This document shows, in pieces, positions 20,254 to 63,483 of a DNA stretch of 64,000 nucleotides. Origin of the DNA: a bacterium (GTDB lineage: Bacteria; UBA8248); NCBI GenBank assembly GCA_965204535.1, contig CBDBEV010000001.1, positions 2,336,001 to 2,400,000 of the forward strand. Direction: 5' to 3'. The notes below the pieces were generated by a model. That model saw only the letters and a program-made list of their open reading frames with translations, was not told the DNA's origin and made no database searches. The translations under genes were made by a program, and so were the position numbers. Within the stretch, counting starts at the first letter, position 1, and each line of letters starts with the position of its first letter.

Positions 20254-20749
20254 GATCCCTCCTGTGCGCCTGAAGCGTGACGCCCCATCAAAACACAAAA
20301 CGAGGCCCGTGGGTATCTTTCGCGGCGTCTTTCGATATGCGCGAGATAACTTCATGTTTATCAATTGGTTGCAATGCTTCGCGCGCCGCTCTAAGGGCGA
20401 GGCTCCCCCGCAATTGCCCGCATTTGTCGTTATCGCGTGAGGCGCGAGCATGGCAGAATTCCTCTGTGCCGCGACCCGGCTGCGTCATTTCCCGAGAATT
20501 TAATTTTCATTTATTTATCGAAAGACACGTTCATAGTCCCACCCTATAGACAATCGTACGACTGGATACCCACAAGCACGATAAACCACTGTATTAAAAG
20601 CAGTAGTTATCATACTTTCTTTTTCGCCTCCCCTTGCACTTACGTCATATTTACGCTATAACGGACGCATATTTGATGCCGGACGTATGCGATTTGATTA
20701 CGGATCGTCCATATCCTCCGGCCCGTGACACGATTTCCTGGGAGTGCCC

Positions 20750-23094: not shown

Positions 23095-23517
23095 GCCACC
23101 GTGCGCAACTCCCGGGAAACCCGGCCGATGATGAACGGTTATCCTGTATCTCCATCCCCGGCCCCGAACGGGTCTTCTCCATCGCGTTTTCTCACGTTTT
23201 TCTGTCATACCCCTGCGCAGCGGAGCGTATCTGTGAGCGTATTCGGAACAATTCCGTAGGATATGAGCTATTAAAACCTGTTGCCGGCGACGCATTTTCG
23301 TATTACATACGCATCGATGAATGCGATCGAATCCCGCACCGGGACCACCCCGGCCTGTCAATCGAGACGCAGCATCGAGACCCGGCTCGCAAGCCGTCCG
23401 GCACCATCGCCGGGGATCGGTTGGCCGAACGCGTCTCCACCCCACCCGGGAGAGGCCGGCAAGTGACTCCCGGAGGAAAATCACGGCTATCCATCAAATC
23501 CTGAAAGGGAGAACCGA

Positions 23518-45483: not shown

Positions 45484-46437
45484 TCAAGCCGCGACGCGCT
45501 GGACGGGGATGCCGAGCGAGCGGGCCTTGTCGACGAGGTTGTCCGTGATGCCCGAGCCCGGGAAAGCGATCACGCCCTTGGGGAGGAGGGAGAGCAGCTC
45601 GTCGTTGCGCCGGAAGGGAGCGGCCCTGCCGTGGGCGTCCCAGTCGGGCTTGCAGACGACCTGGTGGACGCCGTTGCGCTCCGCCCATCCCGCCGCTATC
45701 TTCTCCGCACCCGGGCCGCCGCCGTGGACGAGGACGACGTCGGCGTACTTGGCTTTCAGCTTGTCGAGCTGGCCGATGATTTTACCGGCGTCGGTGGCCT
45801 CCTTGCCTCCCGCGACGGCGACGAGGGTTCCCTGGGGAAGGTGGGCCGTGTTCTCGCGGTCCTTTCTCGCGCGCTGGAAGTCCCGCGCCTCGATCACCGC
45901 CGATGTGAGCTTGCCGGTCTGCGAGACGTGCGATCCTCGCCGGGGCCGCCATACCTCGCCGGTCTCGACGCGGTAGGCCTCTGCGGCGGCGTCACGGAGC
46001 CCTTCGAACGCGTCGCGGCGGGCGGTGAGGTTCTCCGCCCGGTCGGTCGCGAGTTCGAGCTCGCGCGACCTGATCTCGGAGCCGTCCTGCTCGCGCTGCA
46101 TTTCACGGATGCCGGGGATGAGCTTGTCGGCGGCGCGGTCGAGCCGCTGTGTCTGGGCGTCCAGGGTGTTGACGAAACCCCACAGGAGGTTTCTTCGCTC
46201 ATCGGCCAGCTGCGTGCCGTCGGGCGCGGCTTCCGCGAGTGCGCCGAAGGCCTTGAGGACGGCGGCGGTGGACTCCGCCTCGCCCCAGACGGGCCGGTTG
46301 TCGAACTCGTCCGGGCCGGGGGTCGCGCCGAAGAGCTGGGCCTGTTCGCAGACCATGGCGGTGAAGGACTCGTTCTGGGCTTCGATGGTGTCGACCTCGT
46401 GCATGATCATCTCCTTGTGTGTCGCGGTGGCAGTCAT
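45484..46437 (-). CDS. DUF2493 / SLOG (YspA-like) domain protein
   Basis: C-terminal V.V.GG, LVHGG..GAE.IA..WA, PDW..HGRAAPFRRN and AFPG.G.T. Confidence 0.85.
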   Translation of the reverse strand: MTATATHKEMIMHEVDTIEAQNESFTAMVCEQAQLFGATPGPDEFDNRPVWGEAESTAAVLKAFGALAEAAPDGTQLADERRNLLWGFVNTLDAQTQRLDRAADKLIPGIREMQREQDGSEIRSRELELATDRAENLTARRDAFEGLRDAAAEAYRVETGEVWRPRRGSHVSQTGKLTSAVIEARDFQRARKDRENTAHLPQGTLVAVAGGKEATDAGKIIGQLDKLKAKYADVVLVHGGGPGAEKIAAGWAERNGVHQVVCKPDWDAHGRAAPFRRNDELLSLLPKGVIAFPGSGITDNLVDKARSLGIPVQRVAA

Positions 46438-46458
46438 CGTTCACTCCTTTCGTTGTCC

Positions 46459-46833
46459 TCAAGCGAGGGGATGGTTGAATTCGGGAAGAGCGTAGCCACG
46501 CTCGTTGCGCCCCACTTCTTTCGGCATTTCGTCGAGATACCCGGCGGCCCACTCGGCGGCGCGCGCGAGTACGTCGCCGTGGCACGGGAGGGGATGGCAG
46601 TGGCAGCCGAGCTCGCAGCCTTGGAGGTCGGCGAGTTCGTGGAGGTCCAGCTCCTCGCGCCGGATTTTTTCCCAGAGCCATCGCCGGTATTTCTCGATGA
46701 CCTCGCTGCGCGATCCATCCTTGCCGATGCGGAAGGGGTTTCCCCACTTCGTCCTGCGGTCGATCCTGACCAGCAATCCGCCGCCGAATTGAGGCGCAAC
46801 GTAGTCGTTCAGGTTCACCACGGTGGTTTCCAT
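46459..46833 (-). CDS. DUF4326 domain protein
   Basis: IDR.TKWGNPF.IG.DG.R.EVI.KY..WL, L.G..LGC.C.P.PCHGDVL. Confidence 0.88.
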   Translation of the reverse strand: METTVVNLNDYVAPQFGGGLLVRIDRRTKWGNPFRIGKDGSRSEVIEKYRRWLWEKIRREELDLHELADLQGCELGCHCHPLPCHGDVLARAAEWAAGYLDEMPKEVGRNERGYALPEFNHPLA

Positions 46834-46868
46834 GCCTTTCTCCTTCGTAGAGAGTTAACGGATGCGCT

Positions 46869-47059
46869 TCTTAGCGTCCCATTTTCAGCACGTGGTAGGC
46901 GTGGGCGTCAGGGGCGGTTTTCAGTCTTTTTTCACCCGGAGGGCGCGCAGCGGAAAAAATCGGCGCTTCACCGATTTTTTCTGAAAAAAGATGCTTTTGC
47001 GTATTTTGCAAAAGCACCCTTGACCCCGCGCCGTGCGTGCTAAAATGGGGACGCTAAGA
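46869..47059 (+). promoter_or_regulatory. Frpo/ssi-like single-stranded DNA hairpin promoter
   Basis: Long imperfect IR (46869-46914 pairs with 47017-47059); the right arm holds TTGACC (47020) and TAAAAT (47041); nested inner hairpins. Confidence 0.7.
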
Positions 47060-47344
47060 GAGAGAGGGTAGTACCGCCACCGGGACACAAGAGCCTTTGG
47101 TGTTTCACGATGAAGGCGAAGCTCATCGGGAAACAATCTCTCATGCTGCGGAAAGGGTCATTTCGGGCCGTCTTTTCCGGCCCGAAATTCCCGCAGCGGG
47201 GGGTGGACCGAGCCACTATCCGGAACATGGAATGAGTGCAGGTGCATGCCGATCTTCCGGGAACATGGTTCATCGTTCACGGAACCGGAGGATTTACCAG
47301 GTGTTCCCGGTAGACGAGATAGCAGGCACCTCTGGATAACGATC

Positions 47345-47378
47345 AAAAAAAGGGGCCGACGCCGAAGCGCCGACCCCT
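47345..47378 (-). terminator. Intrinsic terminator after ssb
   Basis: AGGGGTCGGCGC-TTCG-GCGTCGGCCCCT hairpin followed by a T-run on the minus strand. Confidence 0.8.
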
Positions 47379-47385
47379 GGTGAGC

Positions 47386-47832
47386 CTAGAACGGGATGTC
47401 GTCCCCGACTACGCCTGCGGGCACCGCCGTCGTCTCGGCGTGCGCGCCGTTGCCGTTACCGTTGCCATTGCCGTTCCCGTTCACCTTGTCGAGGAACTGG
47501 ATGCGCCCGCCCGGCGCGATGAGGATCTCGGTGGAAAAGCGATCGGAGTCCTCCTCGTCCTTCTTCCAGCGGCGGGTCTGCAGCTTGCCCGCGACGTAGA
47601 CCAGGCGGCCCTTCTTCGCGTGCTTCTCAAACATGTCCACCAAGCCGGGCTGGAAGGTCACGACCCGGTGCCACTCGGTCCTGTCCACTCGCTCGCCGGA
47701 CTGCTTGTCGACGTAGCCCTCGTCGGTGGCGATCGAGAGGTTGGCGACGCGCCCCCCGCTCGCGAGATGGTTGATGGTGACGTCGGCGCCGAGACGCCCG
47801 ATCAGTTCCGCTCTGTTGAGTCCGAAAGCCAT
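47386..47832 (-). CDS. ssb: Single-stranded DNA-binding protein
   Basis: N...LIGRLG.D, TEWHRVV, KG.LVYV.G.L.TR.W and DDIPF C-terminus; (NG)n linker. Confidence 0.95.
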   Translation of the reverse strand: MAFGLNRAELIGRLGADVTINHLASGGRVANLSIATDEGYVDKQSGERVDRTEWHRVVTFQPGLVDMFEKHAKKGRLVYVAGKLQTRRWKKDEEDSDRFSTEILIAPGGRIQFLDKVNGNGNGNGNGNGAHAETTAVPAGVVGDDIPF

Positions 47833-47912
47833 TGTAATACTCCTTCATGGTGTGGTGTGGATGATGAAGTGGAAGGGCCGGGAAGCCTCTCTCCCCGATC
47901 CCCCGATCTGCC

Positions 47913-48044
47913 CTATTCCCTCCTGAACTCCTCCTCGCCCCCCGCCTCGTCGCGGATCTTGCGGATCGTGTACGCGTCGAGTCCGAGTTCTGCGAGCAGT
48001 TCGTCCGTGGTGGGAACATCGACGTCGAAGTCGTTCTCGTACAT
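47913..48044 (-). CDS. Small acidic protein (43 aa)
   Basis: GGAGG RBS; 14 of 43 residues are D/E; directly upstream of ssb. Confidence 0.6.
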   Translation of the reverse strand: MYENDFDVDVPTTDELLAELGLDAYTIRKIRDEAGGEEEFRRE

Positions 48045-48230
48045 GGCCAAGCCTCCTGTCGGGGTTGTCGCCGGCGGCGGGAGCTGGAGACCGTCTCCCT
48101 CTCCCCTGCCGGGCCTTTGCCCGGCTCCCCGCTTCGCTCTCACTCTCGGGGGGAGGTCCTCACCCGGCGGGGACCGCTTGCAGACGATGTCGGGACTTGC
48201 CTACGCCCCGGGTTCGTGTCAGATGGAGGC

Positions 48231-49025
48231 ATGGGCAGGCGAAAGGGTATTGACAGGGGCAGCTTGAATTCGCTGGTGGTGGAGGCCTGGAAGGCGTTCG
48301 AACGCGCTGCTCCGGCTTCGCGCGTCCATCCCGCCATGCCGATTCTCTTCTTCGGCGATTTCGAGGCGTACTCTGCCTCGTCAGTTCGGGTAGTGACCGT
48401 GGGCTCGAATCCTTCGCATCACGAATTCCCCAAGGATTCTCCGTTCCGGAGGTTTCCGGGATGCGTCGGGGTCACGGCAACCGACGGCGGGCGCTACGTG
48501 CAAGGCCTGTGTTCCTACTTCCGCGCCGATCCCTACCGCAGATGGTTCCGGCTCTACGACGTCGCGCTCGGGGGAGCGAGGGTCAGTTACTATCCGGGCC
48601 AACCCTCGACGGCCCTGCATACGGACTTTGGTTCGCCCGTCGCCACGAATCCGACGTGGAGCGGACTTGGGGAGCCGGAGCGCCGTGCGCTCCAGGAAGA
48701 AGGCGGCGTCCTGTGGCGCCGGTTGATGGAAATCCTGAAGCCGCAAATCGTCCTGTTGAGCGTCGCGGGGAAAGACCGCGAGTACATCGGGCGCCACTTC
48801 CCGGCATTGAACGACTGGCGGCGGATTCATGAGTTTCGGTGCAAGAAAAACGGGGAGCCTAGAAAACGCCCATACCCGGTCGATGCGAGGTGGTACGCGA
48901 TAATGGGCGAACCTTCGCTGTTCGTATACGGCGCCAAGGCCCAGACACCGTTCGGCTCGCTGAGCGATGAGCAGAAACGACAAGTGGGAGAGTTGACGCG
49001 CCGGACATACGGCAAAGGTCCGTAG
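48231..49025 (+). CDS. Hypothetical protein, possibly uracil-DNA-glycosylase-like fold
   Basis: VVTVGSNPS, YF...PY..WF, HTD..SPVAT.P.W..L and LKP..V; fold call is inference, start uncertain. Confidence 0.5.
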   Translation: MGRRKGIDRGSLNSLVVEAWKAFERAAPASRVHPAMPILFFGDFEAYSASSVRVVTVGSNPSHHEFPKDSPFRRFPGCVGVTATDGGRYVQGLCSYFRADPYRRWFRLYDVALGGARVSYYPGQPSTALHTDFGSPVATNPTWSGLGEPERRALQEEGGVLWRRLMEILKPQIVLLSVAGKDREYIGRHFPALNDWRRIHEFRCKKNGEPRKRPYPVDARWYAIMGEPSLFVYGAKAQTPFGSLSDEQKRQVGELTRRTYGKGP

Positions 49026-49148
49026 ATTTCGCTTGTCACTACCCCCCCCCCGCCGACGACGGGCCGGCTGCGCAGCAGGGCGGCGCTATCCCTACCCCCC
49101 GCCAGACGTATAAAGGCCGGCGGCACGTGCAGGCGCGGCCGCCGGCCC

Positions 49149-49958
49149 TCAGACCCATGCGGTCAGAGTCGACATGAGGGGCTCATCCACCACGACCTCG
49201 ACCTGATCTCGCGAGAGCTTCTCGAAGGCGAGGCACATGGCGACCTCCTCCCAGGAGTCGAGGGGTCCGTGCTCGATGCCGGTGGCTAGTTCGACCACGG
49301 TGAAGCGCGGCGGATAGACGGGCAGGCCCTTGTGCTCTCCCGATGAGTGGTACGATCGGTTCGCGCAGGGAGTGCATCTCACCCCTGCGTCCGCATGGGC
49401 GCCGCAGTCGACGCAAACCGACCGTGCCCGCCTGTCGCGATAGCGTTTCCTGCTCGCGGCGTTCTTGCGCGGACGGCGTTTTTCTTGTTTTGCGGCGCAC
49501 GAAGCGCACGTCGAAGCCTCATCGACGACTTCCGCACCGCACCGTCCGCAAAGCCCTTTCACTCTCCTGGCGGCGTAGAGTTTCTTCTCGGCCGCCCGCC
49601 TCGTCTCCCGGCAGGGTTCGCAGACGGCGCCGGCCTCGACGGGCTCGCGTCCGCAGCGCGGGCACAAGCCGGCCTCCACCCGCTCGCGCCTGCGCTTCCT
49701 CGCCCTCTCGCGCGCCATGCGGCGGCGGCTCTCGGGGCAGCGGCCGCCATATGGGGCTCCCCCCGCTCGGGCTTCGGCGTATCGGGCGCGTCGGGTCTCC
49801 CGGTCCCTCTCTCCGCAGGGCTCGCACAGACTGCGCCCCGGCGCGGGAGGAATCTTTCCGCACCGGGGGCACAGGCCACGCGCGAGTCGGTCGGCGGTGC
49901 GCCGGTGGTGGCGCTCGCGCTCATAAGCGCGTCGTCTCTCCGGGTCCCTGTGTGGCAC
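49149..49958 (-). CDS. Protein with four tandem CxxC-CxxC zinc-finger repeats
   Basis: GLCPRCG..CEPC twice, GLCGRCG..CASC and VCVDCG..CTPC, separated by Arg-rich helices. Confidence 0.75.
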   Translation of the reverse strand: MPHRDPERRRAYERERHHRRTADRLARGLCPRCGKIPPAPGRSLCEPCGERDRETRRARYAEARAGGAPYGGRCPESRRRMARERARKRRRERVEAGLCPRCGREPVEAGAVCEPCRETRRAAEKKLYAARRVKGLCGRCGAEVVDEASTCASCAAKQEKRRPRKNAASRKRYRDRRARSVCVDCGAHADAGVRCTPCANRSYHSSGEHKGLPVYPPRFTVVELATGIEHGPLDSWEEVAMCLAFEKLSRDQVEVVVDEPLMSTLTAWV

Positions 49959-51364: not shown

Positions 51365-54300
51365 CTACCACCGCATCGAGCCCCTGAGCGCCACGCCGTG
51401 GACGGAAGCGCCCCCGTCCCTCTCGCGCAGGTCGCCCTCGAGGCTCATGGTGAGGGACTCGGCGAGCCGGAAGCGCCCGCCGGCGCGGTACGTCTCCCCG
51501 CTCCCGGTGAGCGTGAAGCCGGTGTAGGGCGTCAGGAGTCCGCCCCAGGCGTCGAGGCCCCAGCCCGCCTCGGCGTCGAGGCCCGCCACGGGGTCGAACG
51601 CTCCTCCCCCGAAGCTGCCCCCGGCCCGGGACCAGAGCCGCTCCACGCCGCCCGCGGCCGCGCCCCAGGACGAACCCGCCCGGAGCGAGAGCCCGCGCCC
51701 GTCCGAGCCCGGCGCGTACCCCACCGAGGCGCTCACGCCCCATTCCTCATAACCGCCCTCGTTGTGGGAGAGCAGGCCGCGCGCTCTCACCTCCGCCGTC
51801 AGGGCGCCCGAGGACCAGCGCAGGCCGCCGCCCGCCTCGACGCCCCCGCCCGTCTCCGCGTCGCCCGAATCGTTCCGGAACCCTATCTCCACCGAGGGCG
51901 TCAGCACCGCATCGCCCATCTTGTACGAGCGCGAACCCTCGAGGGCGAGCCGCACCCGGCTCGTCCCCGCTTCGGTCTCCGCCAGGCCCGCCGCGGCGTC
52001 CGAGCGCGTGTCCGTCACGAGGACGTCCGCGCGGAGCGCGAGCTCGAACCCGCCCGGCGCCCGCGCGGGCAGGAGGACGCCGCGCGCCCCTCCCGCCGCC
52101 ACCCCCATATCGAGGTCGGCGTCCATCGACTCAGCCCCCCCGGGCGTGAGCGTCATCCCGCCCGAACCCAGGCCCACCACGCCCCAGAGCGAGAACGACC
52201 CGCTCACCCGGTAGCGCGCGTAGGGCCAGACGCCCGTGAGGGTGCTCTCCACCTCGCCCGCGCAGCCCGTATCGCACGCGCCGCCCATTTTGTACGAGCC
52301 GTCGCCCGAACTCCGCGAGAGCGCCACGCCCACCAGCCAGCGCGACCGCTCGTAGTCGAAGCCCACGGTCGCCGTCGTCACGTCGCCATCCAGCGAGAGA
52401 TCGCCCCCGGCGCCCTCGAACGAGGAGCGCGCGCCCCGGCCCCACAGCGACCAGCGCCCTCCCGGCGCGTCCCCGCCGCCGGCCGAGGCCATGTGAAACG
52501 AACTCGCGAGCAGGAGTTCGCTCATCGAGACCTCGCGCACCGAAGATACCGGCGCCTCCTCGCCGCGCCCGAGCCGGGCCTCCCTCTCCTTCAAGAGGGC
52601 CTCGGCGAGGCGCGACTCGATGGCCTCGCGCTCCGCCTTGCCGCCCGTGAGGCTGTGGCCGCCCAGCACGACGCCCGCGGCGCCGCCCGACAGGCGTCCG
52701 TCAATCGCCCCGGCGACGTGGCCCGCCGCCGTCCGCCCGAAGCGCGAGAGCCACGCCCCCGGCATCGGGTCGTCGTTCCGGATCACCCCCTTCGCCTCGC
52801 GGTGCATCGCGCGCAGGAACGCCCCCCGCGGGTTCGAGAGCGTGAGCTTGAACGTCTCCTTGCCCTCGTCGATGGCGTCGTCGAGAAGCGCCACGCTCAC
52901 CGTGTGAGACGTCTCGCCCGGCGCAAAGGTGAGCGTGCCCGACGCGGCCGTGTAGTCCGCCCCCGCCGCCGCCGTGCCGTCGGCCGTCGCGTAGTCCACC
53001 GAGACCTCGTGCGCCGCCGCGCGGTGGAGCGTCACCGCGAAGTCGAGCGAGGCGTCCTTGCCTTCCTTCGCCCGCGCGTCCGCGACCCGGATGCGCGCCG
53101 GGCCCCGGACCGTCGCCGACGCCTCGCCGAGCGCAACCGTCACGTCCTTCCAGGACTTCGGCATGACGCGGACCCGCCACAGCACCGGGTCCAGCGGCTC
53201 CACGCCCGTCACCTTCCCGGCCGTCACCGTGAACGCCTCCGGGGCGGGCTTCGAGCCCGACTGCACGTCCAGCGCGAACGCCGTCCGCCCGTCATGCTCC
53301 GGCGGGACGTTGCCGAACTCTACCGCCACGGTCTGGGCCTCTTCTTCCGGCGTGGTCTGTTCCTCGGGCGCCTGCGCCTGCGTCTGCGCCTCGGTCACCT
53401 CGATGCGGTAGGTCGTCATGCCGCCCGAACCGCCGCTCGCCATCACCCACAGCTCGGTCGCGCCGCCGTCCGGCGCGAGCGCCAGATCGACCGCCGTGCC
53501 CGAGGGCCGCACCCGCGACGGGCGCGTGAAGGTCGTCCCGCCCCGGCGCGAGCCCGCGAACACGCTCGCCCCGCCGCTCCAGTGCGGCGCCAGCGTCACG
53601 CCCGCCGTCCCCGCCGGGACCTCCGCCCGGTACGACAGCACATCCGTCGAGAAGGCCGGGCTCAGCGCCACCGCTCCCGAACCCGCCGTGAGCGCGAGCC
53701 CGGTCACGCTCAGCGCGTCGCGCTCGTGCGTCCTCGCCGCGTTCTGTTCGTCCTGGACAATGACGGTCACCCGGCCGCCCAGGTAATCCGCCGGGACCTC
53801 CGGCGAGTCGACGCTGTGGTCGACAACCAGGACCTCGTTACGGGAGTTCGCGTCCCTTCCGGCGCTGACCGTGAACGTCTTCGGGCTCGTGTCTCCCGCT
53901 TCGACCCGGATCCGCTCGGGAGAGACCGTGATCGCGCCGGGGTCGCTGTCGCCGGGGACGCTGATGCGCGGGGAAATGTACGCGGCGTCCTCGAGCGGCG
54001 TCTTCAGACGGACGGTGTAGGTCGCGCTGGCGCCCTCCTCCGGCGACACCTGGCCCGGGGAAGCGGCCAGATATTTGCAGTCGTCGTCGATGATTTCGAT
54101 CGAGATCACCAGGCCATGGTGCCGGTCCTGCCGGTCCCACCCGCCCCAGTCGGGACCGCCGCCGCTGCCGTGGTGCCTGATCCAGTACCGGGTGCCGGGC
54201 GGCGACTTGCACTCGTTGTCGTCCACCGCGGTGAGCCCGACCGATTTGGCCTGCTGCCAGTCCCCGCTCAGGTAGTTGGGGTGCGGGGCGGCTTTCCAGG

Positions 54301-55126
54301 TGACCGCGTTGTGGATCGTGAGCAGGCTGTTGTCGACGTTGGGGTAGTCGCTGCCGTCCGGTCGGACGTTGTGGTGTCGCGGCGTGATGGTCAGATCCAG
54401 GGTCGGCGGCTGGTGGATCACGATGCCGTAGGTGATCGATGTGCCCTCGGCGATCTTCATGCGTCCGGGTCCCATCGGGTGGAACCCATCGACGGACATG
54501 CTGCCGGCGCGGCCCAGCGAGGGCACCACCAGACTCACCGTGACCTGCTGGTTGTCGGTCCATTGCGGGTTGACACCCGTCCATTGGTAACGTCCTTCAG
54601 CGCCGAAATCACCAAGGGTCAACCGCGTATTGCCGAGATGCAACACCAGCCCGGCAAGCTTCGCGCGTGGTGTCGGATCGGTGCTCATCTGAAACCGATT
54701 AGTGGAAGAGATGTAAGATAACCGGCTGATTCGATAGGTCCTACCGTTGTACTCGAAGTCATCGTCCGTGAGCGCCGAGGAGCAGGGTTCTTGCGTAGCG
54801 GCGGTTTCGCAGCCGTAATAAATTCCGTCCTTACTGACTGTCAGCGTCGCCGACCAGATGTGGGACTGCGCCTGGGCGGGCGCGGCCGCGAACAGGCCGA
54901 GCGCGCCGAGCAGCAGCGCGAGGACGGGGAGTAAGACGAGGCGGCGGGCGCGGGCGCGCCCGGTGCGGGCGTCAGGCCGTCTGGAGCCCCTCGATAAACT
55001 CGGGACAGGCTCTGCCGATGTCGGGGAAGTCGGCTCGCGCACTCCGGCCGGGTTCACTTCACGCCGCCGGGCCGCGCTGCAGAACGCCGCCGCCGGCAGC
55101 ATGGAAATCAGTGCAATGTTCTTCAT
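51365..55126 (-). CDS. Autotransporter-like adhesin with Ig/cadherin-like and Calx-beta domains
   Basis: Signal peptide ..AAAPAQA; LSPAF....SY cadherin-like domain; VDYATADGTA.AGADY..SGTLTFAPGE....V.LLDD..DEG.E.F Calx-beta; C-terminal beta-barrel ending in W. Confidence 0.88.
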   Translation of the reverse strand: MKNIALISMLPAAAFCSAARRREVNPAGVREPTSPTSAEPVPSLSRGSRRPDARTGRARARRLVLLPVLALLLGALGLFAAAPAQAQSHIWSATLTVSKDGIYYGCETAATQEPCSSALTDDDFEYNGRTYRISRLSYISSTNRFQMSTDPTPRAKLAGLVLHLGNTRLTLGDFGAEGRYQWTGVNPQWTDNQQVTVSLVVPSLGRAGSMSVDGFHPMGPGRMKIAEGTSITYGIVIHQPPTLDLTITPRHHNVRPDGSDYPNVDNSLLTIHNAVTWKAAPHPNYLSGDWQQAKSVGLTAVDDNECKSPPGTRYWIRHHGSGGGPDWGGWDRQDRHHGLVISIEIIDDDCKYLAASPGQVSPEEGASATYTVRLKTPLEDAAYISPRISVPGDSDPGAITVSPERIRVEAGDTSPKTFTVSAGRDANSRNEVLVVDHSVDSPEVPADYLGGRVTVIVQDEQNAARTHERDALSVTGLALTAGSGAVALSPAFSTDVLSYRAEVPAGTAGVTLAPHWSGGASVFAGSRRGGTTFTRPSRVRPSGTAVDLALAPDGGATELWVMASGGSGGMTTYRIEVTEAQTQAQAPEEQTTPEEEAQTVAVEFGNVPPEHDGRTAFALDVQSGSKPAPEAFTVTAGKVTGVEPLDPVLWRVRVMPKSWKDVTVALGEASATVRGPARIRVADARAKEGKDASLDFAVTLHRAAAHEVSVDYATADGTAAAGADYTAASGTLTFAPGETSHTVSVALLDDAIDEGKETFKLTLSNPRGAFLRAMHREAKGVIRNDDPMPGAWLSRFGRTAAGHVAGAIDGRLSGGAAGVVLGGHSLTGGKAEREAIESRLAEALLKEREARLGRGEEAPVSSVREVSMSELLLASSFHMASAGGGDAPGGRWSLWGRGARSSFEGAGGDLSLDGDVTTATVGFDYERSRWLVGVALSRSSGDGSYKMGGACDTGCAGEVESTLTGVWPYARYRVSGSFSLWGVVGLGSGGMTLTPGGAESMDADLDMGVAAGGARGVLLPARAPGGFELALRADVLVTDTRSDAAAGLAETEAGTSRVRLALEGSRSYKMGDAVLTPSVEIGFRNDSGDAETGGGVEAGGGLRWSSGALTAEVRARGLLSHNEGGYEEWGVSASVGYAPGSDGRGLSLRAGSSWGAAAGGVERLWSRAGGSFGGGAFDPVAGLDAEAGWGLDAWGGLLTPYTGFTLTGSGETYRAGGRFRLAESLTMSLEGDLRERDGGASVHGVALRGSMRW

Positions 55127-55240
55127 TTGGAATACCCCCTGTTCCGAGATTTCGAGTTCAAGCTGACGCAACCGGCAGTGAGTCTTTCCGCGAGAGGCGG
55201 ATTCCTGCGGTATGCGCCCACCTCGAACCCGGGCTGGTGT

Positions 55241-55440
55241 CCGCTAATTGCCATTATCGGAAAGTTAAACACCTCTCACGGCCATGTCAAGCGCAATTCC
55301 GGGGTCCCCGGAGGGGTTTCGGGCGCCGTTTTGCGCCTTTTTTCGCTCATGTTTCGCTCATTTGCGGCCCGTATGCCCCCCCGAAACGGGTTTTTCGGCG
55401 GAAAACAAGGCTTCTGGGGGCCAATAATGGCAATTATCGG
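55241..55440 (-). promoter_or_regulatory. Invertible promoter A, pointing at the autotransporter (ON)
   Basis: Sites CCGCTAA-TTGCCA-TTATCGG (55241-55260) and CCAATAA-TGGCAA-TTATCGG (55421-55440); TTGACA(55290-55285)-N17-TAACTT on the minus strand. Confidence 0.88.
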
Positions 55441-55555
55441 ACTCCAGAAACCCGCCGTTTCGCCGGTATTCCCCTGCGAAACGGCTTTTTTTGTGGAAAT
55501 TCCCCGTCGTCGTCCATACTTGGCAATCGAGGAGGCGCTCGGGCGGCCCCGGGCA

Positions 55556-55753
55556 ATGGACACGGCCGCCGACCTGGCGAAGGCGTCGATGTCTGAGAAC
55601 ACGCGGCGGGCGTACGGGACGGCGCTCAGGGGATTCGAGTGTTCGGGAAACCCCGAGACCGACGCCGGGATAGCGGCGTACCTGGGGAATCTCTACGAGG
55701 GGGAGTACGCGGCGGCCGTGGCCGCGATGGCGAGGCTGCGCTACGGGCGGTGA
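55556..55753 (+). pseudogene. Internally deleted tyrosine recombinase
   Basis: N- and C-terminal ends of the 61418-62290 protein are fused at CGCGATGGCG; catalytic domain missing. Confidence 0.9.
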
Positions 55754-55841
55754 GGTCCGCCCGGCGTTTCGTCGTGAGCATGTCCTTCGCTCCGGGCAGG
55801 TCCGCCGCGTGCGGGACGCCCGTCTTCTCCCGAATATCTCT

Positions 55842-56561
55842 CTACCGCCTCTTCTTTCTGCGGGCGGCTCTCTCCCCGGACGTGGAGGTCCACCTCCGGG
55901 CGGAGGCCCACTTCTCGAGGTCTTCGAGCAGGTAGCGCACCCGGTATCCGGTGCGAAGAAAATCCGGCCCCTCGCCGCTCACGCGGTAGCGCTCGAGCGT
56001 CCTGGGCGAGAGGCCGAGCCAGGCGGCCGCCTCCCGCGTGTCCAGGCGGTTCTCCCCCGCGCGTTCATCGACGTCTCCCGCGGGACCGGGTTCCCCGGCG
56101 GCGTCCCACGTCCCGTCGAACGGGTCGGAGAGATCCGCGAGCCTCTCGCGTATGGCGCGGACCTCCTCTCGGGTCGCGCCCGCCGCCATCCAGGCGCGCA
56201 CCCGGTCGAAGGTCTTGAGATACGGCGAGGCGCCCCGGCGCAGCCTTCCCACGAAGGAGGGATTCCCCACGGTCTCCTCGCCCAGGATCGAGACCTTGGT
56301 CCCGCTCACCGCGAGAAACGCCTCGACCTCGGCCCGCAGGAACGGTCCCAGGGGCGGATACCCCATGAACGCGAGCACCCGGTCCGCCGTGTCGACCCGC
56401 AGGGGCCGCCCCCGGGCGTGCAGTCCCACGAAGCCGGGAATCCCCAGCGCGCCCACCCCGAAGCGCCGCGCGCTCATCCCCCGGCGCGCGCGCCAGAGCG
56501 CAATGCTCCGGCGCAGCCGCTCGTCCAGCGGGGCGCCGGTATCGTCGTCGAACGCGGTCAT
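55842..56561 (-). CDS. Triple-HTH protein (two Cro-like repeats plus excisionase-like HTH_17)
   Basis: Repeat ..F....G.P.FV....RG......T.DRV.A.M twice; LDTREAAAWLGLSPRTLE.YR..G.GP.F.....RVRY. Confidence 0.82.
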   Translation of the reverse strand: MTAFDDDTGAPLDERLRRSIALWRARRGMSARRFGVGALGIPGFVGLHARGRPLRVDTADRVLAFMGYPPLGPFLRAEVEAFLAVSGTKVSILGEETVGNPSFVGRLRRGASPYLKTFDRVRAWMAAGATREEVRAIRERLADLSDPFDGTWDAAGEPGPAGDVDERAGENRLDTREAAAWLGLSPRTLERYRVSGEGPDFLRTGYRVRYLLEDLEKWASARRWTSTSGERAARRKKRR

Positions 56562-56792
56562 GGCGCGCGAACATAAGGAAAGTGCGAGCGCCCGTTCAAT
56601 CGTTGTTTCTAGCGCGGAAGGTACACCCGGGAAGAGTCCGCGACCGCGTCCGTGCGCGGGTCGCTCATCGGTTCAGCCTGAAATCACGGGCGTTTTCCAG
56701 AAAACGAGGGTCGCCGGAGAACGCGCAGCGAGGCGCTACGGAAAAAAAGGAAGGACGCCGCCCCCCGGCGCGCGCTCGAAAGCCTCTCTCGT

Positions 56793-56933
56793 TCACGCCG
56801 CGGTGGGCTGTTTCGCGAGTCGTCGCTGCGAATGGCGCTCCGGCATGACCGGCGATTGGCGGTGAACGGCGAGTTGCATCTCGACCGGAGAAGCCGCTGC
56901 CGCGGCAAGGCGCTGCGCGCTGCCCGTCCGCAG
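56793..56933 (-). pseudogene. Remnant of a recombinase C-terminus
   Basis: LRTGSAQRLA...SPVEMQLA..RQSPVMPERHSQRRLAKQ matches the C-terminus of 61418-62290. Confidence 0.8.
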
Positions 56934-57140
56934 GTCGAAACGGCGCCGATTCCCTTGTTTCATTCGTTTTTATCGCATCGTATGCTGATGTTCCGGGTCG
57001 TCCGCCAAATACAATACGGCCAAGCCGAAACAGGCGGACATTCCTTCGTGGATTGTATGCCAACGGCCCGGATTTTCCCGGTCCTGTCCGATTGACCGTT
57101 ATGCCTTACACGTCTTTCGATGATTGGTCGGGCATGGTGG

Positions 57141-58193
57141 TCACGCCGGTGTTTCCGTCAGATCGGACAATTCGCCTTTCTCGAAGGTTTTGGGAGCCCA
57201 CCCCGGCAAGAAGGGCGTATCCATGTGGTCGAGTTGCAAGGCGTCGCGCATCCCCTGGGGGATGCTGGCAAGCCATTCGGGTATACCCAGTAGGGGCGAT
57301 GGATCGGGGTCGTAGTAGAAGCGACCCATTTCGGGCATTCCGGTGTCAGGCCAATGGGCCTCGTCGCGCTTGAGCAGCTGCACCGACCAGCGTTCCATGC
57401 GGGTTTCCACCAGGAAGATCTCGTCCGGCGCATTTGTGCACGCTGATAGCAGCGAAGGGAGAAGGTCTTCGCGGAATTCGAAACTCGTAAGGCCCGGATC
57501 ACCGCTTTCCAAAACCAGAACGGTACGTGCGCCATCCGCCTTGCAGTCCTGAAGCTTGGGGCATTTCCTGGAAAAGGTATCCCGGAGACTGTCCAAGCGC
57601 GGGCTTTCCGGATCGTCCGGAGGAATGAACCTGAACGAGAATGATCCCGGCTTTTTTTGCACGAGCCGTGCAATCGGCCATTGCAGCAGTTCGAATTCAC
57701 ACTCAAATCCCGGCGGGGTTCCATGGATACGATCATCGGACCAATAAGGATCGCGGATTGATAAGATTTGGCCGGAGTTCCGCTTGCGCAGAGTTTTCTC
57801 GCTTGCCTGGATCCATTCGACGAGAGCACCAAGTGCTCGTTCTCTTTTTTTGACTCGCCCTTTGGGCAGGGAAACGTCGGTTGGGAATTGCAGTTCGTAG
57901 TAGGCCAGGCTTGAGAATGGCTCCGGGATAGCTTTTTTGATGTGCTCGATGATTTGGTTCGCGACGACCACGGTCGCGATCTGATTTTCGATCGACTCTA
58001 CCCGAGTGTGCTCAATCGCATATTCCCGGGAGCCGAGCTTCAGACGCAGATCGACGGGAGGACCGCCTCCCTCCTTATCGGGATGACGGACATTCGAGCG
58101 CGTCTCGCGTGTCCATTTTTCGAGGGTCCTGACGACTGCATCGCATACCCGCCCCTCGTTGTTCGGCACTACCATGACTGACGAATCCCTCAT
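57141..58193 (-). CDS. Hypothetical protein with possible PD-(D/E)XK-like N-terminus
   Basis: 350-aa ORF; HPD...PPVDL......YAIEHT; nuclease call is inference. Confidence 0.55.
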   Translation of the reverse strand: MRDSSVMVVPNNEGRVCDAVVRTLEKWTRETRSNVRHPDKEGGGPPVDLRLKLGSREYAIEHTRVESIENQIATVVVANQIIEHIKKAIPEPFSSLAYYELQFPTDVSLPKGRVKKRERALGALVEWIQASEKTLRKRNSGQILSIRDPYWSDDRIHGTPPGFECEFELLQWPIARLVQKKPGSFSFRFIPPDDPESPRLDSLRDTFSRKCPKLQDCKADGARTVLVLESGDPGLTSFEFREDLLPSLLSACTNAPDEIFLVETRMERWSVQLLKRDEAHWPDTGMPEMGRFYYDPDPSPLLGIPEWLASIPQGMRDALQLDHMDTPFLPGWAPKTFEKGELSDLTETPA

Positions 58194-58647
58194 TTTCCCT
58201 GATTTACCCGTTCCCGCTCACGGGCCATATATTCTATCATGCCGCGTTTGTCTGCATCGACTCGCCAAGTGCGGTTATATGCCGGTCACCGCATCTCTAT
58301 GTCCTATGCTGGTGTCCATGTACGTCCACATACGGTCATCGATACGGGATCGGGAAAACGGTACTCGAACGGAAAACTTTCAAGCTCGCGTAATCGATTC
58401 GGACCGGTCCTTGCATCTTCATACGGGCCTGAGGACCGATGACTCGCGCACGCCGGGATGCTCTGGAGTTGTAATGAACCCGCTTTCGTTTTGATTACGG
58501 GCCTGCCAGGGAAAATTCATGGCAACCTGTTAACTAATCTTATAACAGCACCTTACAGGATAATCGAAAATGCCCGAAACTGCTCTTGTCTCTAGGACGG
58601 CCAAAATCCGAAACCGGGCGGCGACGCAGGCTCTCGCCTTGAAAGGC

Positions 58648-58779
58648 AACCCCCCCTACCCCCCCTTGTCAGGGGGGTATAAAAAAGCAACCCCCCGACG
58701 AGGGGTTAAAAACAAAAAGGTCCCCCCGACAGGGGGGAGCAAAAAAAGACCCCCCTGTGATAAGGGGGGGTTGGGGGTC
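58648..58779. repeat. Cluster of C-run/G-run palindromes (REP-like)
   Basis: CCCCCCTTGTCAGGGGGG, AACCCCCCGACGAGGGGTT, TCCCCCCGACAGGGGGGA and CCCCCTGTGATAAGGGGG separated by A-tracts. Confidence 0.75.
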
Positions 58780-59126
58780 AAACCCGATCGATGAGGGAGG
58801 GTTTGCCTTTCAAGGAAAAAAGGGCCGACACCCCGCAAAGGGCTGCTTTAAGGGGTTGAAAAAACCCCTGAAGATGGGAATTGCTGCGACACGATCCCCG
58901 AGGTGCAGGCCGAGTCGGGGTGTCGGCTGCTTTCATGAAGCGAAAACAGGGGCCGCCCGTTGTTCCCCCTCCCGGCTCGAGGACTCAAACTCACAGCCAG
59001 GAGCGGTACAATTTGCTCTCACGAGGGAAGCAACCAACGGGCAACCCCCTTTTCGCTCTCCTCATGCCGCCCCGGCCCCGGGGCCGTGAAGCCCCGAAGC
59101 CATAGGCGTCGTGCTCTTCGCTGCTC

Positions 59127-60878
59127 CTACTGCTTCTTCGCGCCGAAGGCGCCGACCATCCTGCCGGCCGTGCCGTACTCGGTGTAGAACGTGCCGGTCG
59201 CGACCTTCGGAACGCTGCTGTCGTCGGTATTGGTGACAGCGGTGTCTTTCAGCATTCCTGACCACTCGCCGGAGGGGTCAGCGGCCGTGTCGCCGATGGT
59301 CCAGACTGTTTCCTGGGCCACGTCACTGCCGGCTAGGGGAGCTACCGAAATAACGATTCCGTCGCGGGTGCGGTCACCAATCATCTGCCCGTTACCGAAG
59401 AGCGCAGACTTCTTCAACTCGACGGTCCAATCCTTCGACTCGCCGTCCGCCATGAACTGGTCGATGGTGCCGGTGACCTCGTCCTTCTCGAAATCGGCCT
59501 CCAGCGTCGCCGTCGCGGTGAAGTGGCCGGCGTCGTTCGTGCCGCCCGTGGCGCTGCTCAAAGCGTACTTGCCGGCGGCGCCGCCGCGATACGTGGCGCT
59601 TCCTCCCACCAAGCCAGCGATGTTGAGTGTGTCGGGAGTGGGGCCCTTGTCATCCACAAAGGCGCCCGCGGTCAGCGAGCCGTCCGCCTTCGTGAGGAGC
59701 CACCAGCCGTAAGAGGCGTACTCGCTGTCCGCCATCTCCGTCACCCTAGCTGCGGGATTCGTCGCCTTGAAAACCCAAGCAGTAGGGTCAAGAAACGTAT
59801 AGCCCACCGGCGCCTTGCGGACGGCGCAACCATTGCCGGTGGCGGGCGTGCAGATGTAGGTGCCCGCCACACCGTAGTAGGTGCCGAGGATGGGGATCGT
59901 GTCCTGCCCGGTCAAGTCATTGGCCGGCAATTTGGGGACGTAGTTCCCCGCTTTATGCGTGAACCTCGGGCTGGCGATCCTTGGGCCGAGGTTCAATGCG
60001 TCCGTCATCGTCACCGTGTCCGAGTCGTCGCCCGTGAGCGCAAACCCGACATTGCCGTCACCGGTACCGGAATTGAACTTCGCACCCATCGTCGGCGCGC
60101 CGACATCCGAGTAGACGACCGCTTCGTACATGTCGCCCTTGTTGGCGCCAGTCGTCACCGAATGCGTGTACCTCTTGCCCTTCCAGCCATGGAGATCGGC
60201 GACCATCGTCTTCTTGTCTTCCGACAGGGTGGCGGTAGCCGCAGTAGCCGCCGGGTCGGTGCCGATCTGCACCGCGATCTGGCTATCGTTGGTTCCAGCA
60301 TAGCCCGCGATGCGGTCAGTGGTTGCGTAGGTGCCGACCTCGCCCATTGGCTTCCCGATCCCCGCGTACAGCTTCGCCGCCGTGGCGGCCATGGCGGCAT
60401 CCGCAGCCTTCTGTGCATCGTCCATCGCGGCCATGCGGGCCGTCTTGGCGTCGGCAAGCTGCGCTTCGAGCGCGGTGACGGTTCCGGTGTTCGCGGTTTT
60501 CTCCGCCGCCGGTACATCTTCGGCCGCCGCTATCGCCGCCTTCGCGGCCGCGATCGCCGCATCGGCGGCGCTCACCTCGGCAGCGGTCGAGTCGTTGTCC
60601 ACCATGCCGACCTTCGTCTGGGCGTCCGCCAGTTTCGCTTTGATGTCCGCACGTTCCATAGCCAATTTCTCTGCCGCCAAATCTGCGGCTGAAGTGCATG
60701 TCTCATTGTCATTCCATCGGCCCCCCGCGTCCTCGCACGCCATCCGCGAGTCATCAGGCATCTCGGCCGGCGCTTGCGTAGAGCCGCCGCCACCGCCGCA
60801 TCCAGCCAGCGCGATGGCGAACACGGCCGCCAGCGCGAAAGCGTAAAGCTTGTTTATCGGTTTCTCTTTGAACGTCAT
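59127..60878 (-). CDS. Surface lipoprotein with TbpB-like C-terminal beta-barrel
   Basis: Lipobox LAGC then GGGGGS; Ala-rich helical region; ATY.G.AAG.Y, F.A.A.L.ADF...V.G.I and G.F.......VGAFGA end. Confidence 0.8.
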   Translation of the reverse strand: MTFKEKPINKLYAFALAAVFAIALAGCGGGGGSTQAPAEMPDDSRMACEDAGGRWNDNETCTSAADLAAEKLAMERADIKAKLADAQTKVGMVDNDSTAAEVSAADAAIAAAKAAIAAAEDVPAAEKTANTGTVTALEAQLADAKTARMAAMDDAQKAADAAMAATAAKLYAGIGKPMGEVGTYATTDRIAGYAGTNDSQIAVQIGTDPAATAATATLSEDKKTMVADLHGWKGKRYTHSVTTGANKGDMYEAVVYSDVGAPTMGAKFNSGTGDGNVGFALTGDDSDTVTMTDALNLGPRIASPRFTHKAGNYVPKLPANDLTGQDTIPILGTYYGVAGTYICTPATGNGCAVRKAPVGYTFLDPTAWVFKATNPAARVTEMADSEYASYGWWLLTKADGSLTAGAFVDDKGPTPDTLNIAGLVGGSATYRGGAAGKYALSSATGGTNDAGHFTATATLEADFEKDEVTGTIDQFMADGESKDWTVELKKSALFGNGQMIGDRTRDGIVISVAPLAGSDVAQETVWTIGDTAADPSGEWSGMLKDTAVTNTDDSSVPKVATGTFYTEYGTAGRMVGAFGAKKQ

Positions 60879-61105
60879 TTAGCGAGTCCTCCTGAATACA
60901 CAGTAGAAAAAGGGATTTTCAGTGAATTTCCGGCTTTCTCCGATTAACCTCCTTTCGTCAGCTTTTTTTCGGGCCTTCACAAACTGGTGATTCGTATTTC
61001 GGGCCGCCTGGAATACGGCGGACTTGAACCCTTTCATCGTCCGGGCCGGTCGTTCCGCGAGAGGCGGATTCCTGCGGTATGCGTCCCCCTTTCCCGGCCT
61101 GGCCG

Positions 61106-61304
61106 CCGTTAATTGATGTTATCGGTCCCCAGAAACCCCGTTTTCCGCCGAAAAACCCGATTCGGGGCGCATTCGGGCCGCAAACGAGCGAAATGTAAGC
61201 GAAAAAAGGCGCAAAACGGCCTTCGAAACCCTTCCGGAGACCCCGGAATTGCGCTTGACATGGCCGTGAGAGGTGTTATATTTTCTGATAACATCAATTA
61301 TCGG
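61106..61304 (+). promoter_or_regulatory. Invertible promoter B, pointing away from the lipoprotein (OFF) and toward the recombinase
   Basis: Perfect 14-bp IR TAATTGATGTTATC (61110-61123) / GATAACATCAATTA (61287-61300); TTGACA(61255)-N16-TATATT(61277) on the plus strand. Confidence 0.9.
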
Positions 61305-61417
61305 ACTCCAGCACAGCCGTTTCGCCAGTATTCCCCTGCGAAACGGCTTTTTTTGTGGAAATCCCCCGTCGTCGTCTATACTTGGTAATCAAGGAGGCGC
61401 TCGATCGGCCTCAGGGA

Positions 61418-62290
61418 ATGGAAACGGCCGCCGACCTGGCGAAGGCGTCGATGTCTGAGAACACGCGGCGAGTGTACGAGACTGCCCTGCGGAGGTTCGA
61501 GCGATCGGGAAACCCCGAGACCGACGCCGGGATAGCGGCGCACCTGGGGGACCTCTACGAGGGGGGGCACGCGGCGGCCGTGGCCGCGATGGCGGTCGCG
61601 GCGCTTCGCTTCCGGGCGAAGCTGAACGGCCGGCCCTCCCCGGTGGGGGCGGCCTCGGAGCGGGTGCTGGCCGGCTTCCGGCGCCTGGCCGCAGAGCGGG
61701 GCCGGGGCCAGGTGGCGGGGGTGCGCTGGGAGCAGGCGGACCGGGCGGCGGCGCTGGCCGAGGGAACGGGGACCCTGGCCGGTCTGCGCGACGCGGCGAT
61801 CGTGGCGGTGGCGAGCGACGCCCTGCTCCGGGTGTCGGAGGTCGAGGCGCTCGACGTCGCCGACGTGGACCTCGACGAGCAGACGGTGCTGATCCGCCGC
61901 TCGAAGACGGACCAGGAGGCCGAGGGCGTCGTACAGTTTCTGGGCGAGCCGACGGTGGCGCGCGTCGGGGCCTGGCTGGCGCGCGCGGGTCTTGAGGAGG
62001 GAGCGCTCTTCCGGGGCGTGTACAAGGGGGGACGGCTTCGGCCGGGGCGCCTGACGGAGAGGAGCATCCGGAGCATCATCGCGCGGTGGGGGAAGGCCGC
62101 GGGCGTGGAGGGGCGCATCAGCGGGCACAGCCTTCGCGTGGGCAGCGCCCAGAGCCTGGCCACGGCGGGGGCGTCGCTGGTCGAGATGCAGATTGCCGGG
62201 CGCTGGCAGTCGCCGGTCATGCCGGGGCGCTACGCGCAGGGACAGCTCGCGAAACAGGGCGCGATGGCGAGGCTGCGCTACGGGCGGTGA
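61418..62290 (+). CDS. Cre-like tyrosine recombinase (candidate invertase)
   Basis: RDAA......LLRVSE, SKTDQ..EG, SGHSLRVG, GRW.S..M..RY: R-K-H-R-W-Y catalytic set; no arm-binding domain. Confidence 0.92.
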   Translation: METAADLAKASMSENTRRVYETALRRFERSGNPETDAGIAAHLGDLYEGGHAAAVAAMAVAALRFRAKLNGRPSPVGAASERVLAGFRRLAAERGRGQVAGVRWEQADRAAALAEGTGTLAGLRDAAIVAVASDALLRVSEVEALDVADVDLDEQTVLIRRSKTDQEAEGVVQFLGEPTVARVGAWLARAGLEEGALFRGVYKGGRLRPGRLTERSIRSIIARWGKAAGVEGRISGHSLRVGSAQSLATAGASLVEMQIAGRWQSPVMPGRYAQGQLAKQGAMARLRYGR

Positions 62291-62484
62291 GGTCCGCCCG
62301 GCGTTTCGTCGAACACGGAACAGGCACGAAGAGAATTCGCGGCGGGCGCGACCCGCCCGCGTCCGGAATTCAGGAGGACGATGGTCTCGCGCTCCTGCGC
62401 CGCGGCCTCCTCCGTCGTGAGCATGTCCCTGGTTCCCGCAAGGTCCGCCGCGTGCGGGACGCCCGTCTTCTCCCGAATACCTCT

Positions 62485-63186
62485 CTACCGCCTCTTCTTT
62501 CTCCGGGCGGCTCTCTCCTCGGACGTGGAAGTCCACCTCCGGGCGGAGGCCCACTTCTCGAGGTCTTCGAGCAGGTAGCGCACCCGGTATCCGGTGCGAA
62601 GAAAATCCGGCCCCTCGCCGCTCACGCGGTAGCGCTCGAGCGTCCTGGGCGAGAGGCCGAGCCAGGCGGCCGCCTCCCGCGTGTCCAGCTGGTTCTCCCC
62701 CGCGCGCTCATCGGCGTCTCCCGCGGCGTCCCACGTCCCGTCGAACGGGTCGGGCAAGTCCGCGAGCCTCTCGCGTATGGCGCGGACCTCCTCTCCCGTC
62801 GCGTTGGCCGCCATCCAGGCGCGCACCCGGTCGAAGGTCTTGAGATACGGCGAGGCGCCCCGGCGCAGCCTCCCCACGAAGGAGGGATTCCCCACGGTCT
62901 CCTCGCCCAGGATCGAGACCTTGGTCCCGCTCACCGCGAGAAACGCCTCGACCTCGGCCCGCAGGAGCGGTCCCAGGGGCGGGTACCCCATGAACGCGAG
63001 CACCCGGTCCGCCGTGTCGACCCGCAGGGGCCGCCCCCGGGCCTGCAGTCCCACGAAGCCGGGAATGCCCAGCGCGCCCACCCCGAAGCGCCGCGCGCTC
63101 ATCCCGCGGCGCGCGCGCCAGAGCGCAATGCTCCGGCGCAGCCGCTCGTCCAGCGGGGTGTCGGTATCGTCTTTGAACGCGGTCAT
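62485..63186 (-). CDS. Triple-HTH protein, copy B
   Basis: Near-identical to 55842-56561. Confidence 0.82.
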   Translation of the reverse strand: MTAFKDDTDTPLDERLRRSIALWRARRGMSARRFGVGALGIPGFVGLQARGRPLRVDTADRVLAFMGYPPLGPLLRAEVEAFLAVSGTKVSILGEETVGNPSFVGRLRRGASPYLKTFDRVRAWMAANATGEEVRAIRERLADLPDPFDGTWDAAGDADERAGENQLDTREAAAWLGLSPRTLERYRVSGEGPDFLRTGYRVRYLLEDLEKWASARRWTSTSEERAARRKKRR

Positions 63187-63386: not shown

Positions 63387-63483
63387 TCACACCGCGGCGC
63401 CCTGTTTCGCGAGTCGCCCCTGCGAATGGCGCTCCGGCATGACCGGCGATTGGCGGCGCCCGGCGAGTTGCATCTCGACCGGA
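63387..63483 (-). pseudogene. Remnant of a recombinase C-terminus, copy B
   Basis: PVEMQLAGRRQSPVMPERHSQGRLAKQGAAV. Confidence 0.8.

Follow-up and report, generated by a model that had tools for sequence, protein, structure and literature searches.

Two Probable Promoter Inversion Switches with Different Crossover Spacers and Their Place in a Family of Putative Cre-Type Modules of a Sponge-Associated Bacterium

Two Switches in One Window

The DNA considered here, hereafter the window, is a stretch of 64,000 nucleotides from a UBA8248 bacterium (positions 2,336,001 to 2,400,000 of contig CBDBEV010000001.1, assembly GCA_965204535.1), which carries two putative promoter switches, A and B, each consisting of a promoter-bearing segment between two inverted recombination sites. 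The window belongs to the genome under study, G000, and a second genome of the same genus, G002, is the main comparator. Both modules have the same order, namely a surface gene on the minus strand, a leader, the left site, the promoter segment, the right site, a terminator-like hairpin, the recombinase, and an HTH_17 gene (Table 1), and at A as well as B inverted repeats flank a promoter upstream of a gene, as in an inverton. The modules are 90% identical over 1120 bp, while the segments between the sites, of 173–174 bp, are mutual inverse copies (84% over 162 nt). The promoter of A faces the gene of the 1253-amino-acid (aa) surface protein (ON), and that of B faces away from the 583-aa lipoprotein gene, into the hairpin (OFF).

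A palindrome search allowing up to two mismatches found four sites in the window, at 55241, 55421, 61106, and 61285, against 0.26 expected, and none of 100 shuffles reached four. The first-pass annotation of this DNA had all four fitting CCGATAA-N6-TTATCGG; the sites are at these places, but each shows one mismatch to that palindrome, always in the left arm, and none is perfect. The full site is 34 bp long (14+6+14) and its arms are degenerate, with 8–11 of 14 positions palindromic. Three of the four arm classes have CTGG-N3-CCGNTAA in common, whereas the arm on the promoter side is rich in A and T and extends into the −10 box. The further statement that the 6-bp spacers match in inverse orientation within a locus and differ between loci holds exactly, since TTGCCA/TGGCAA at A and TTGATG/CATCAA at B are perfect inverse copies within each locus. 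Between A and B, the spacers mismatch at positions 4–6 (one transversion and two transitions), or at four positions when aligned antiparallel.

The promoter scan listed the promoter of B alone, and that of A, under the cut-off of the scan, was read from the sequence. A hairpin followed by a T run occurs at 32 of the 59 switch loci of the genus described below, as judged by a loose filter that admits some weak cases. Because a terminator-like hairpin separates the promoter from the recombinase at both A and B, a feedback reading in which the OFF promoter drives the recombinase was dropped. A comparison of the leader RNA with Rfam gave nothing that reached the gathering level, and the leader folds had z values of 0.0 and −2.2, so that a structured leader RNA was set aside.

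Table 1. Coordinates of the two switch modules and their genes in the window.
Feature	Position	Strand	Remarks
Autotransporter-like surface protein, 1253 aa, target of switch A	51365..55126	-	Open reading frame (ORF); Calx-beta and cadherin-like domains; C-terminal Trp
Site A-left, 34 bp	55234..55267	+	Spacer TTGCCA at 55248-55253
Invertible segment A, ON	55254..55427	.	Inverse copy of segment B; orientation table
Promoter-like site of A	55262..55290	-	TTGACA, 17 nt, TAACTT; −10 box overlaps inner arm
Site A-right	55414..55447	-	Spacer TGGCAA at 55428-55433, inverse of A-left
Terminator-like hairpin right of switch A	55454..55492	+	T7 tail; z −5.9
Recombinase remnant at A, 65 aa	55556..55753	+	Residues 1-59 fused in frame to 285-290 at short repeat
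HTH_17-type gene, copy A	55842..56561	-	ORF; 95–96% identical repeat of copy B
Lipoprotein, 583 aa, under switch B	59127..60878	-	LAGC lipobox, helical stalk, TbpB-like C-terminal lead
Site B-left, 34 bp	61099..61132	+	Spacer TTGATG at 61113-61118
Invertible segment B, OFF	61119..61291	.	Repeat comparison and orientation table
Sigma-70-like promoter of B	61255..61284	+	TTGACA, 16 nt, TATATT with TG; 11/12; promoter scan
Site B-right	61278..61311	-	Spacer CATCAA at 61292-61297, inverse of B-left
Terminator-like hairpin between switch B and recombinase	61316..61354	+	T7 tail; z −4.7
Cre-type tyrosine recombinase, 290 aa	61418..62290	+	Domain, sequence, profile, and fold matches
HTH_17 gene, copy B	62485..63186	-	Domain match

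The Recombinase

The top PDB match of the enzyme beside switch B is Cre, both by sequence (E 7e-13) and by profile (2e-21 versus 2e-10 for Xer), and the XerC/D and Fim profile models score far under their cut-off on it. Residues R138, K163, H237, R240, W263, and Y272 align with R173, K201, H289, R292, W315, and Y324 of Cre, in the numbering found in the accessible text of PMC10250229. The predicted model, whose last 55 residues are of low confidence, has a two-domain fold that is closest to Cre and lacks an arm-binding domain (Foldseek E 8e-10, TM-score 0.45, and a root-mean-square deviation of 15 that stems from domain placement). There are eight full-length copies in G000, the others being 80–95% identical to that of B. 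The copy at A has undergone an internal in-frame deletion and is a remnant without the catalytic domain; therefore, A would need an enzyme supplied in trans. The first-pass annotation had inferred two switches served by one recombinase, which is too narrow for a genome with eight such copies and 17 site pairs.

The Switch Family and the Within-Locus Spacer Rule

One of the 17 site pairs of G000 is split over both ends of contig C1. A search by DNA in 41 genomes gave a match in 13, one of which (G032) held no site pair; with two partial matches in G003 left out, the set comprises 59 loci from 12 genomes, all of the same genus (17 in G000, 16 in G002, and 26 in ten others). Half of the other genomes of the genus (11/22) have no DNA match.

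The spacer is identical at both ends in 58 of the 59 loci, although the set contains 23 different spacers. In G000 all 17 pairs match, against 1.5 expected when partners are shuffled (2.5 of 16 in G002), and all six spacer positions co-vary between partners, position 1 included. Co-variation within pairs, which the first-pass annotation had proposed as a check across homologous modules, is therefore found throughout the family. The 12 bases TAA-N6-TTA agree between partner sites in 58–59 of 59 loci, while the base just outside them agrees in 3/59 loci on one side and 30/59 on the other. Since no more than three of 59 pairs agree at the arm base that adjoins TAA, the homogenised block is bounded to 12 bp. 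The crossover would accordingly be confined to TAA-N6-TTA, with cutting probably at the spacer edges, and a heteroduplex over the six bases predicts spacers that match at both ends (PMC12282940, PMC11260471, accessible text). The switch family and its within-locus spacer rule are considered real.

The sole mismatched locus, in G002, resembles a near-twin in its left part (0.6% apart), while its right site and right flank belong to a different type. It is possibly a cross-locus product of one-base neighbours, or else an effect of assembly or homologous recombination. As to spacer composition, the variation at positions 2, 5, and 6 consists almost entirely of transitions, and 54/59 loci have T at positions 1–2, so that the usable code is small.

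Sequence comparison establishes that both promoter orientations exist, between loci and between genomes. G000 has 15 OFF and two ON switches, and in the whole set seven loci are ON and 52 OFF; in the seven ON loci, the inner arms are swapped and the outer arms fixed. Four loci are syntenic between G000 and G002, although for one of them the synteny is firm on the recombinase side alone. In each of the four, a single spacer base has changed, in both copies of the spacer, and one of these loci is OFF in G000 and ON in G002.

Some single places in the two genomes are of separate interest. A lone left site with a truncated leader lies 6 kb from another switch (G000:C2:561247) and resembles a remnant. 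In G002 (C1:2556925-2585527), two facing switches with the spacers of A and B are 28.6 kb apart, and the interval is missing at the matching place of G000. The first and last bases of contig C1 of G000 fall inside one switch spacer, which may reflect mixed orientations in the reads; its flanks are adjacent in G002, where there is no switch. A rearrangement at the shared spacer TTGCTG was considered and rejected, as no exchange was shown and both C1 flanks adjoin each other in G002. Moreover, about 30 kb at >99.6% identity are common to G000:C1:183067-215427 and either end of C2; the contigs may therefore belong to a single chromosome, connected via a repeated element.

Relatives with a Lone Site

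Outside the genus, a related palindrome lies upstream in 24 of 65 loci of recombinase homologues (one downstream match being excluded), which ties this site to this enzyme family. As in Cre-type systems, a 34-bp palindromic target adjoins the gene; 13–14 of 14 positions are palindromic in several distant relatives, and three of the 24 sites have an identical core with perfect arms of 13–14 bp. A matched partner site was found in the fetched DNA of none of the 24 lone-site loci and in all five controls. The lone sites, most of them from distant taxa, carry 22 spacers with no neighbouring switch. A scan of 50 loci for paired switches outside the genus yielded none beyond three known-type pairs and one weak unmatched pair, with a filter that missed one known pair (in L099). 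Among the loci covered, paired sites occur within the genus alone, those of other phyla being lone sites. Named homologues include metagenome-assembled genomes (MAGs) of Nitrospinota, and the named holders among the sequencing runs are mostly sponge metagenomes.

Four Latescibacterota homologues (L108, L109, L110, and L161) have a perfect or near-perfect 34-bp palindromic site upstream, and such sites are candidates for a cleaner Cre-type tool than the degenerate switch sites. At locus L095, which belongs to a different family within the class and has a recombinase of 77% identity, a quite different palindrome lies about 460 bases upstream of the match, which suggests a changed specificity.

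Do Different Spacers Insulate the Switches?

Switches A and B are best explained as two of 17 promoter modules between inverted lox-like sites that a Cre-type recombinase likely flips, thereby switching surface-protein genes. Their spacers would likely block exchange between A and B, an effect that simply follows from divergence and does not amount to a unique code; to this reading we assign a probability of about 0.65. With three of six spacer positions mismatched and an enzyme of Cre type, site-specific exchange between A and B should be strongly hindered, as judged from two-base lox variants (PMC1479339), and it seems probable that the spacers insulate A from B. Each module has two inverse 34-bp sites around a promoter, seen in both orientations. 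As with Cre, the recombinase would bind the arms, cut at the edges of the 6-bp spacer, and need matching spacers to finish the reaction. The two ends would be forced to remain identical, a change at one end either locking the switch or being copied across via heteroduplex. Free of binding constraint, the spacer would drift faster than the rest of the module, and it would not be overwritten by gene conversion between paralogues, since conversion at one spacer end would lock the switch. Recent copies retain the parental spacer, so insulation would be partial genome-wide, and switch A, having lost its recombinase, would depend for its inversion on an enzyme acting in trans. The distance between spacers follows the descent of the modules (Spearman 0.38 and 0.52, with non-independent pairs). 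A mosaic scan found a two-parent pattern in 7/33 loci, with two breaks at the right spacer and none at the left, although homologous recombination looks alike. Apart from the sites, A and B share a 158-bp perfect direct repeat, so that the intervening DNA could be lost by homologous recombination regardless of the spacers.

Several observations weigh against this explanation. The spacers require 54 parsimony steps over six columns, whereas interior columns average 3.0 steps each (P 0.00025, or P 0.001 if only variable interior columns are compared), and none of 157 six-column interior windows reaches this number. Spacer divergence is 0.38 versus 0.16 at fourfold sites of the linked recombinases (91 non-independent pairs), and 0.33 versus 0.075 in the closest pairs. 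The spacers thus change two to four times faster than linked synonymous sites, which also fits selection for new spacers. All four syntenic orthologues have a spacer change (P 0.036), although per site the rate is 4/24 versus 0.091 (P 0.17). Identical spacers occur in none of 14 locus pairs within 120 kb, a result that is not significant. Moreover, A and B share spacer bases 1–3, so that the initial exchange of strands might still take place there. No inversion or cleavage has been observed directly. In addition, one in vitro Cre screen showed no preference for identical spacers (PMC1479339, accessible text). On the other hand, if gene conversion homogenises the paralogous modules and the spacer escapes it, the spacer excess could be explained by that alone.

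Fast spacer turnover would also be expected from a selected spacer code, in which new or incoming switches are favoured if their spacer is unlike those of the residents, because loci with the same spacer suffer deletions and inversions. This is the insulation that the first-pass annotation had in mind, and already proposed for RecV (PMC12282940). Its within-locus co-variation and the three mismatches between A and B are found, but a unique, selected code is not supported by the data. A code of the RecV type would give each switch its own spacer; G000 has 13 spacers for 17 loci and G002 has eight for 16, one being common to four loci, and uniqueness is seen for the A/B pair alone. Eight of the 17 G000 loci share a spacer with another locus, as do most loci of G002, and the remaining nine in G000, A and B included, are one base away from another. 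Identical spacer pairs are slightly rarer than in column shuffles (4 versus 6.7 expected in G000, P 0.15; 14 versus 17.1 in G002, P 0.16) and, besides the lack of identical pairs within 120 kb, the spacer pair of A and B recurs at 28.6 kb in G002. Nevertheless, all tests of sharing and distance are non-significant, nearby loci being not significantly more different in spacer at three thresholds in both genomes (P 0.08–0.85). Degenerate arm columns vary about equally (14, 8, and 7 steps, in columns outside the tree building), and three lone-site relatives with near-identical arms have three spacers over four loci. Furthermore, two TTGCTG loci coexist in G000 without rearrangement relative to G002. 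Selection for insulation is hence unproven, and the selected code is judged an unlikely explanation.

It is more improbable still that the spacers insulate poorly and mainly tune rates, with independence coming from distance (170 bp versus at least 6 kb) or from a topology filter set by an accessory protein on the segment interior. The spacers of A and B do differ at one end only, 119/174 interior columns are non-polymorphic, and the mismatched G002 locus, with a right flank unlike that of its near-twin, is a possible cross-locus product. Single-base lox variants leak (lox511; PMC1479339), and pdif sites with unlike spacers are inferred to have fused once (PMC9947245, both in accessible text). 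However, 58 of 59 matched pairs with 23 spacers indicate a rapid removal of mismatches, which would hardly be expected of an enzyme that tolerates them, and two-base lox variants are incompatible (PMC1479339). The least probable alternative by far is that these are not working inversion sites today, but relics of resolvase sites of mobile elements or binding sites of the HTH protein. The prevalence of one orientation (52/59) and the resemblance of lone-site relatives to resolvase cassettes would suit it, but so many features do not, namely the two orientations with exactly exchanged arms, the flipped orthologue, the orthologous spacers changed at both ends together (4/4), and eight intact enzymes. 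Metagenome contigs of four runs over 54000–63000 contained nine joints, none at a site and none strand-changing, in a screen with no positive control, and contigs of two runs on switch B contained no joint. As within-locus flips are equally unseen there, the absence of joints between A and B says nothing. An origin of the spacers from integration targets, prompted by right flanks that change just past the right site, was also considered and proved indistinguishable from drift.

A bolder and rather doubtful scenario starts from a lone lox-plus-resolvase cassette that is common among sponge-associated bacteria and that one genus would have converted into a promoter switch carried from place to place by elements, with a spacer selected to differ from those of the residents. 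If true, the 23 spacers of the genus would be a natural library for a Cre-type enzyme as yet uncharacterised, and a spacer code could be tested there at population scale.

Neighbouring Genes, Repeats, and a Mobile Element

The 1253-aa protein seems to be autotransporter-like, although it has no match to a barrel family. The TbpB-like C-terminus of the lipoprotein is a lead only, and the single-sequence structure model of this protein is of unusably low confidence (predicted local distance difference test 40). G/C-run palindromes at 58652-58777, resembling a repetitive extragenic palindromic (REP) sequence or a miniature inverted-repeat transposable element (MITE), have very high depth in metagenome contigs and also terminate the transcript region of the lipoprotein. 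In both modules, an inverted copy of the recombinase 3′ end (77–85% identity) lies about 1.1 kb downstream (window 62131-62262 versus 56808-56934 and 63397-63480).

Switch A sits at the far end of an integrative element (window 20744-28403 and 45484-49958) with two tandem integrases, TrwB, and TrwC, which also carries MmeI-type and Mrr-type restriction, SLOG, DUF4326, and SSB genes. TrwC has eight matches in G000 and the element is many-copy in G002. Element backbone genes occur within 11 kb on the gene side at 2/16 tested loci in G000 (plus B, behind A) and at 5/16 in G002. The TrwB/TrwC element is likely the route by which the switches spread, and no att repeat was found for it.

Significance

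With 59 homologous switches and 23 spacers, the within-switch rule is confirmed almost without exception and uniqueness is shown to be dispensable. This bears on the question of how a single recombinase can serve many switches and yet leave the chromosome in order, and it suggests that up to 17 surface loci of a sponge-associated bacterium are turned on and off in combination. One enzyme, together with natural spacers that differ by one, two, and three bases, suffices to probe the rule and its limits. As to use as a genetic tool, which the first-pass annotation had suggested, a candidate Cre-type enzyme with a compact site is at hand, but until its activity and orthogonality are measured it adds little to the engineered lox variants and the other natural Cre-type systems already available.

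Comparison with Known Systems

A literature search, with most subscription papers outside its reach, found no paper on this switch system; the comparisons below follow the accessible text of the papers cited. The idea of insulation by spacers is not new, its precedent being the spacer code proposed for RecV of C. difficile on the basis of six switches (PMC12282940). There, too, a tyrosine recombinase acts on several scattered switches with arms of about 13 bp and a 6-bp spacer that is the same within and different between switches, and the same argument for insulation is made, likewise as a proposal. However, RecV comes from a single master gene, is said to have no N-terminal domain, and acts on six switches with unrelated interiors, whereas here a two-domain Cre-type enzyme is present in eight copies with 17 paralogous one-promoter modules and shared spacers. 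Moreover, the repeats of Cdi2 and Cdi5 are called identical in PMC5903667.

Cre/loxP offers the closest solved structures, six catalytic residues in common, and a 34-bp palindromic site, as here upstream of the gene (PMC1479339, PMC11260471, PMC10250229), and it tolerates a spacer change if both copies match. Nevertheless, the enzyme described here is only about 22% identical to Cre, has another arm sequence with degenerate arms (8–11/14), and would act on two inverted sites that flank a promoter, not on a single resolution site, an activity deduced from sequence.

Many promoter invertons before surface genes are also known from Bacteroides, with Mpi and other tyrosine invertases, and from Akkermansia (PMC11892184, PMC13343947, PMC5903667). 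In these gut systems, the adjacent invertase is likewise not driven by the switch promoter, and the motif given for Akkermansia has a variable centre. The gut systems differ from the present one in motif, in enzyme family, and in host group (here sponge-associated, with named homologues from Nitrospinota MAGs). The mpl system of Mycoplasma penetrans (cited in PMC2268961 and PMC3599477) similarly combines one tyrosine recombinase with many lipoprotein genes, each switched independently of the others by an adjacent invertible promoter, but with an Xer-like enzyme in a reduced genome. Finally, the pdif sites of Acinetobacter are several sites served by one recombinase system, in which reversibly active pairs share the 6-bp spacer (PMC9947245), although there the enzyme is an XerC/D heterotetramer, the modules are plasmid genes, and no promoter is switched.

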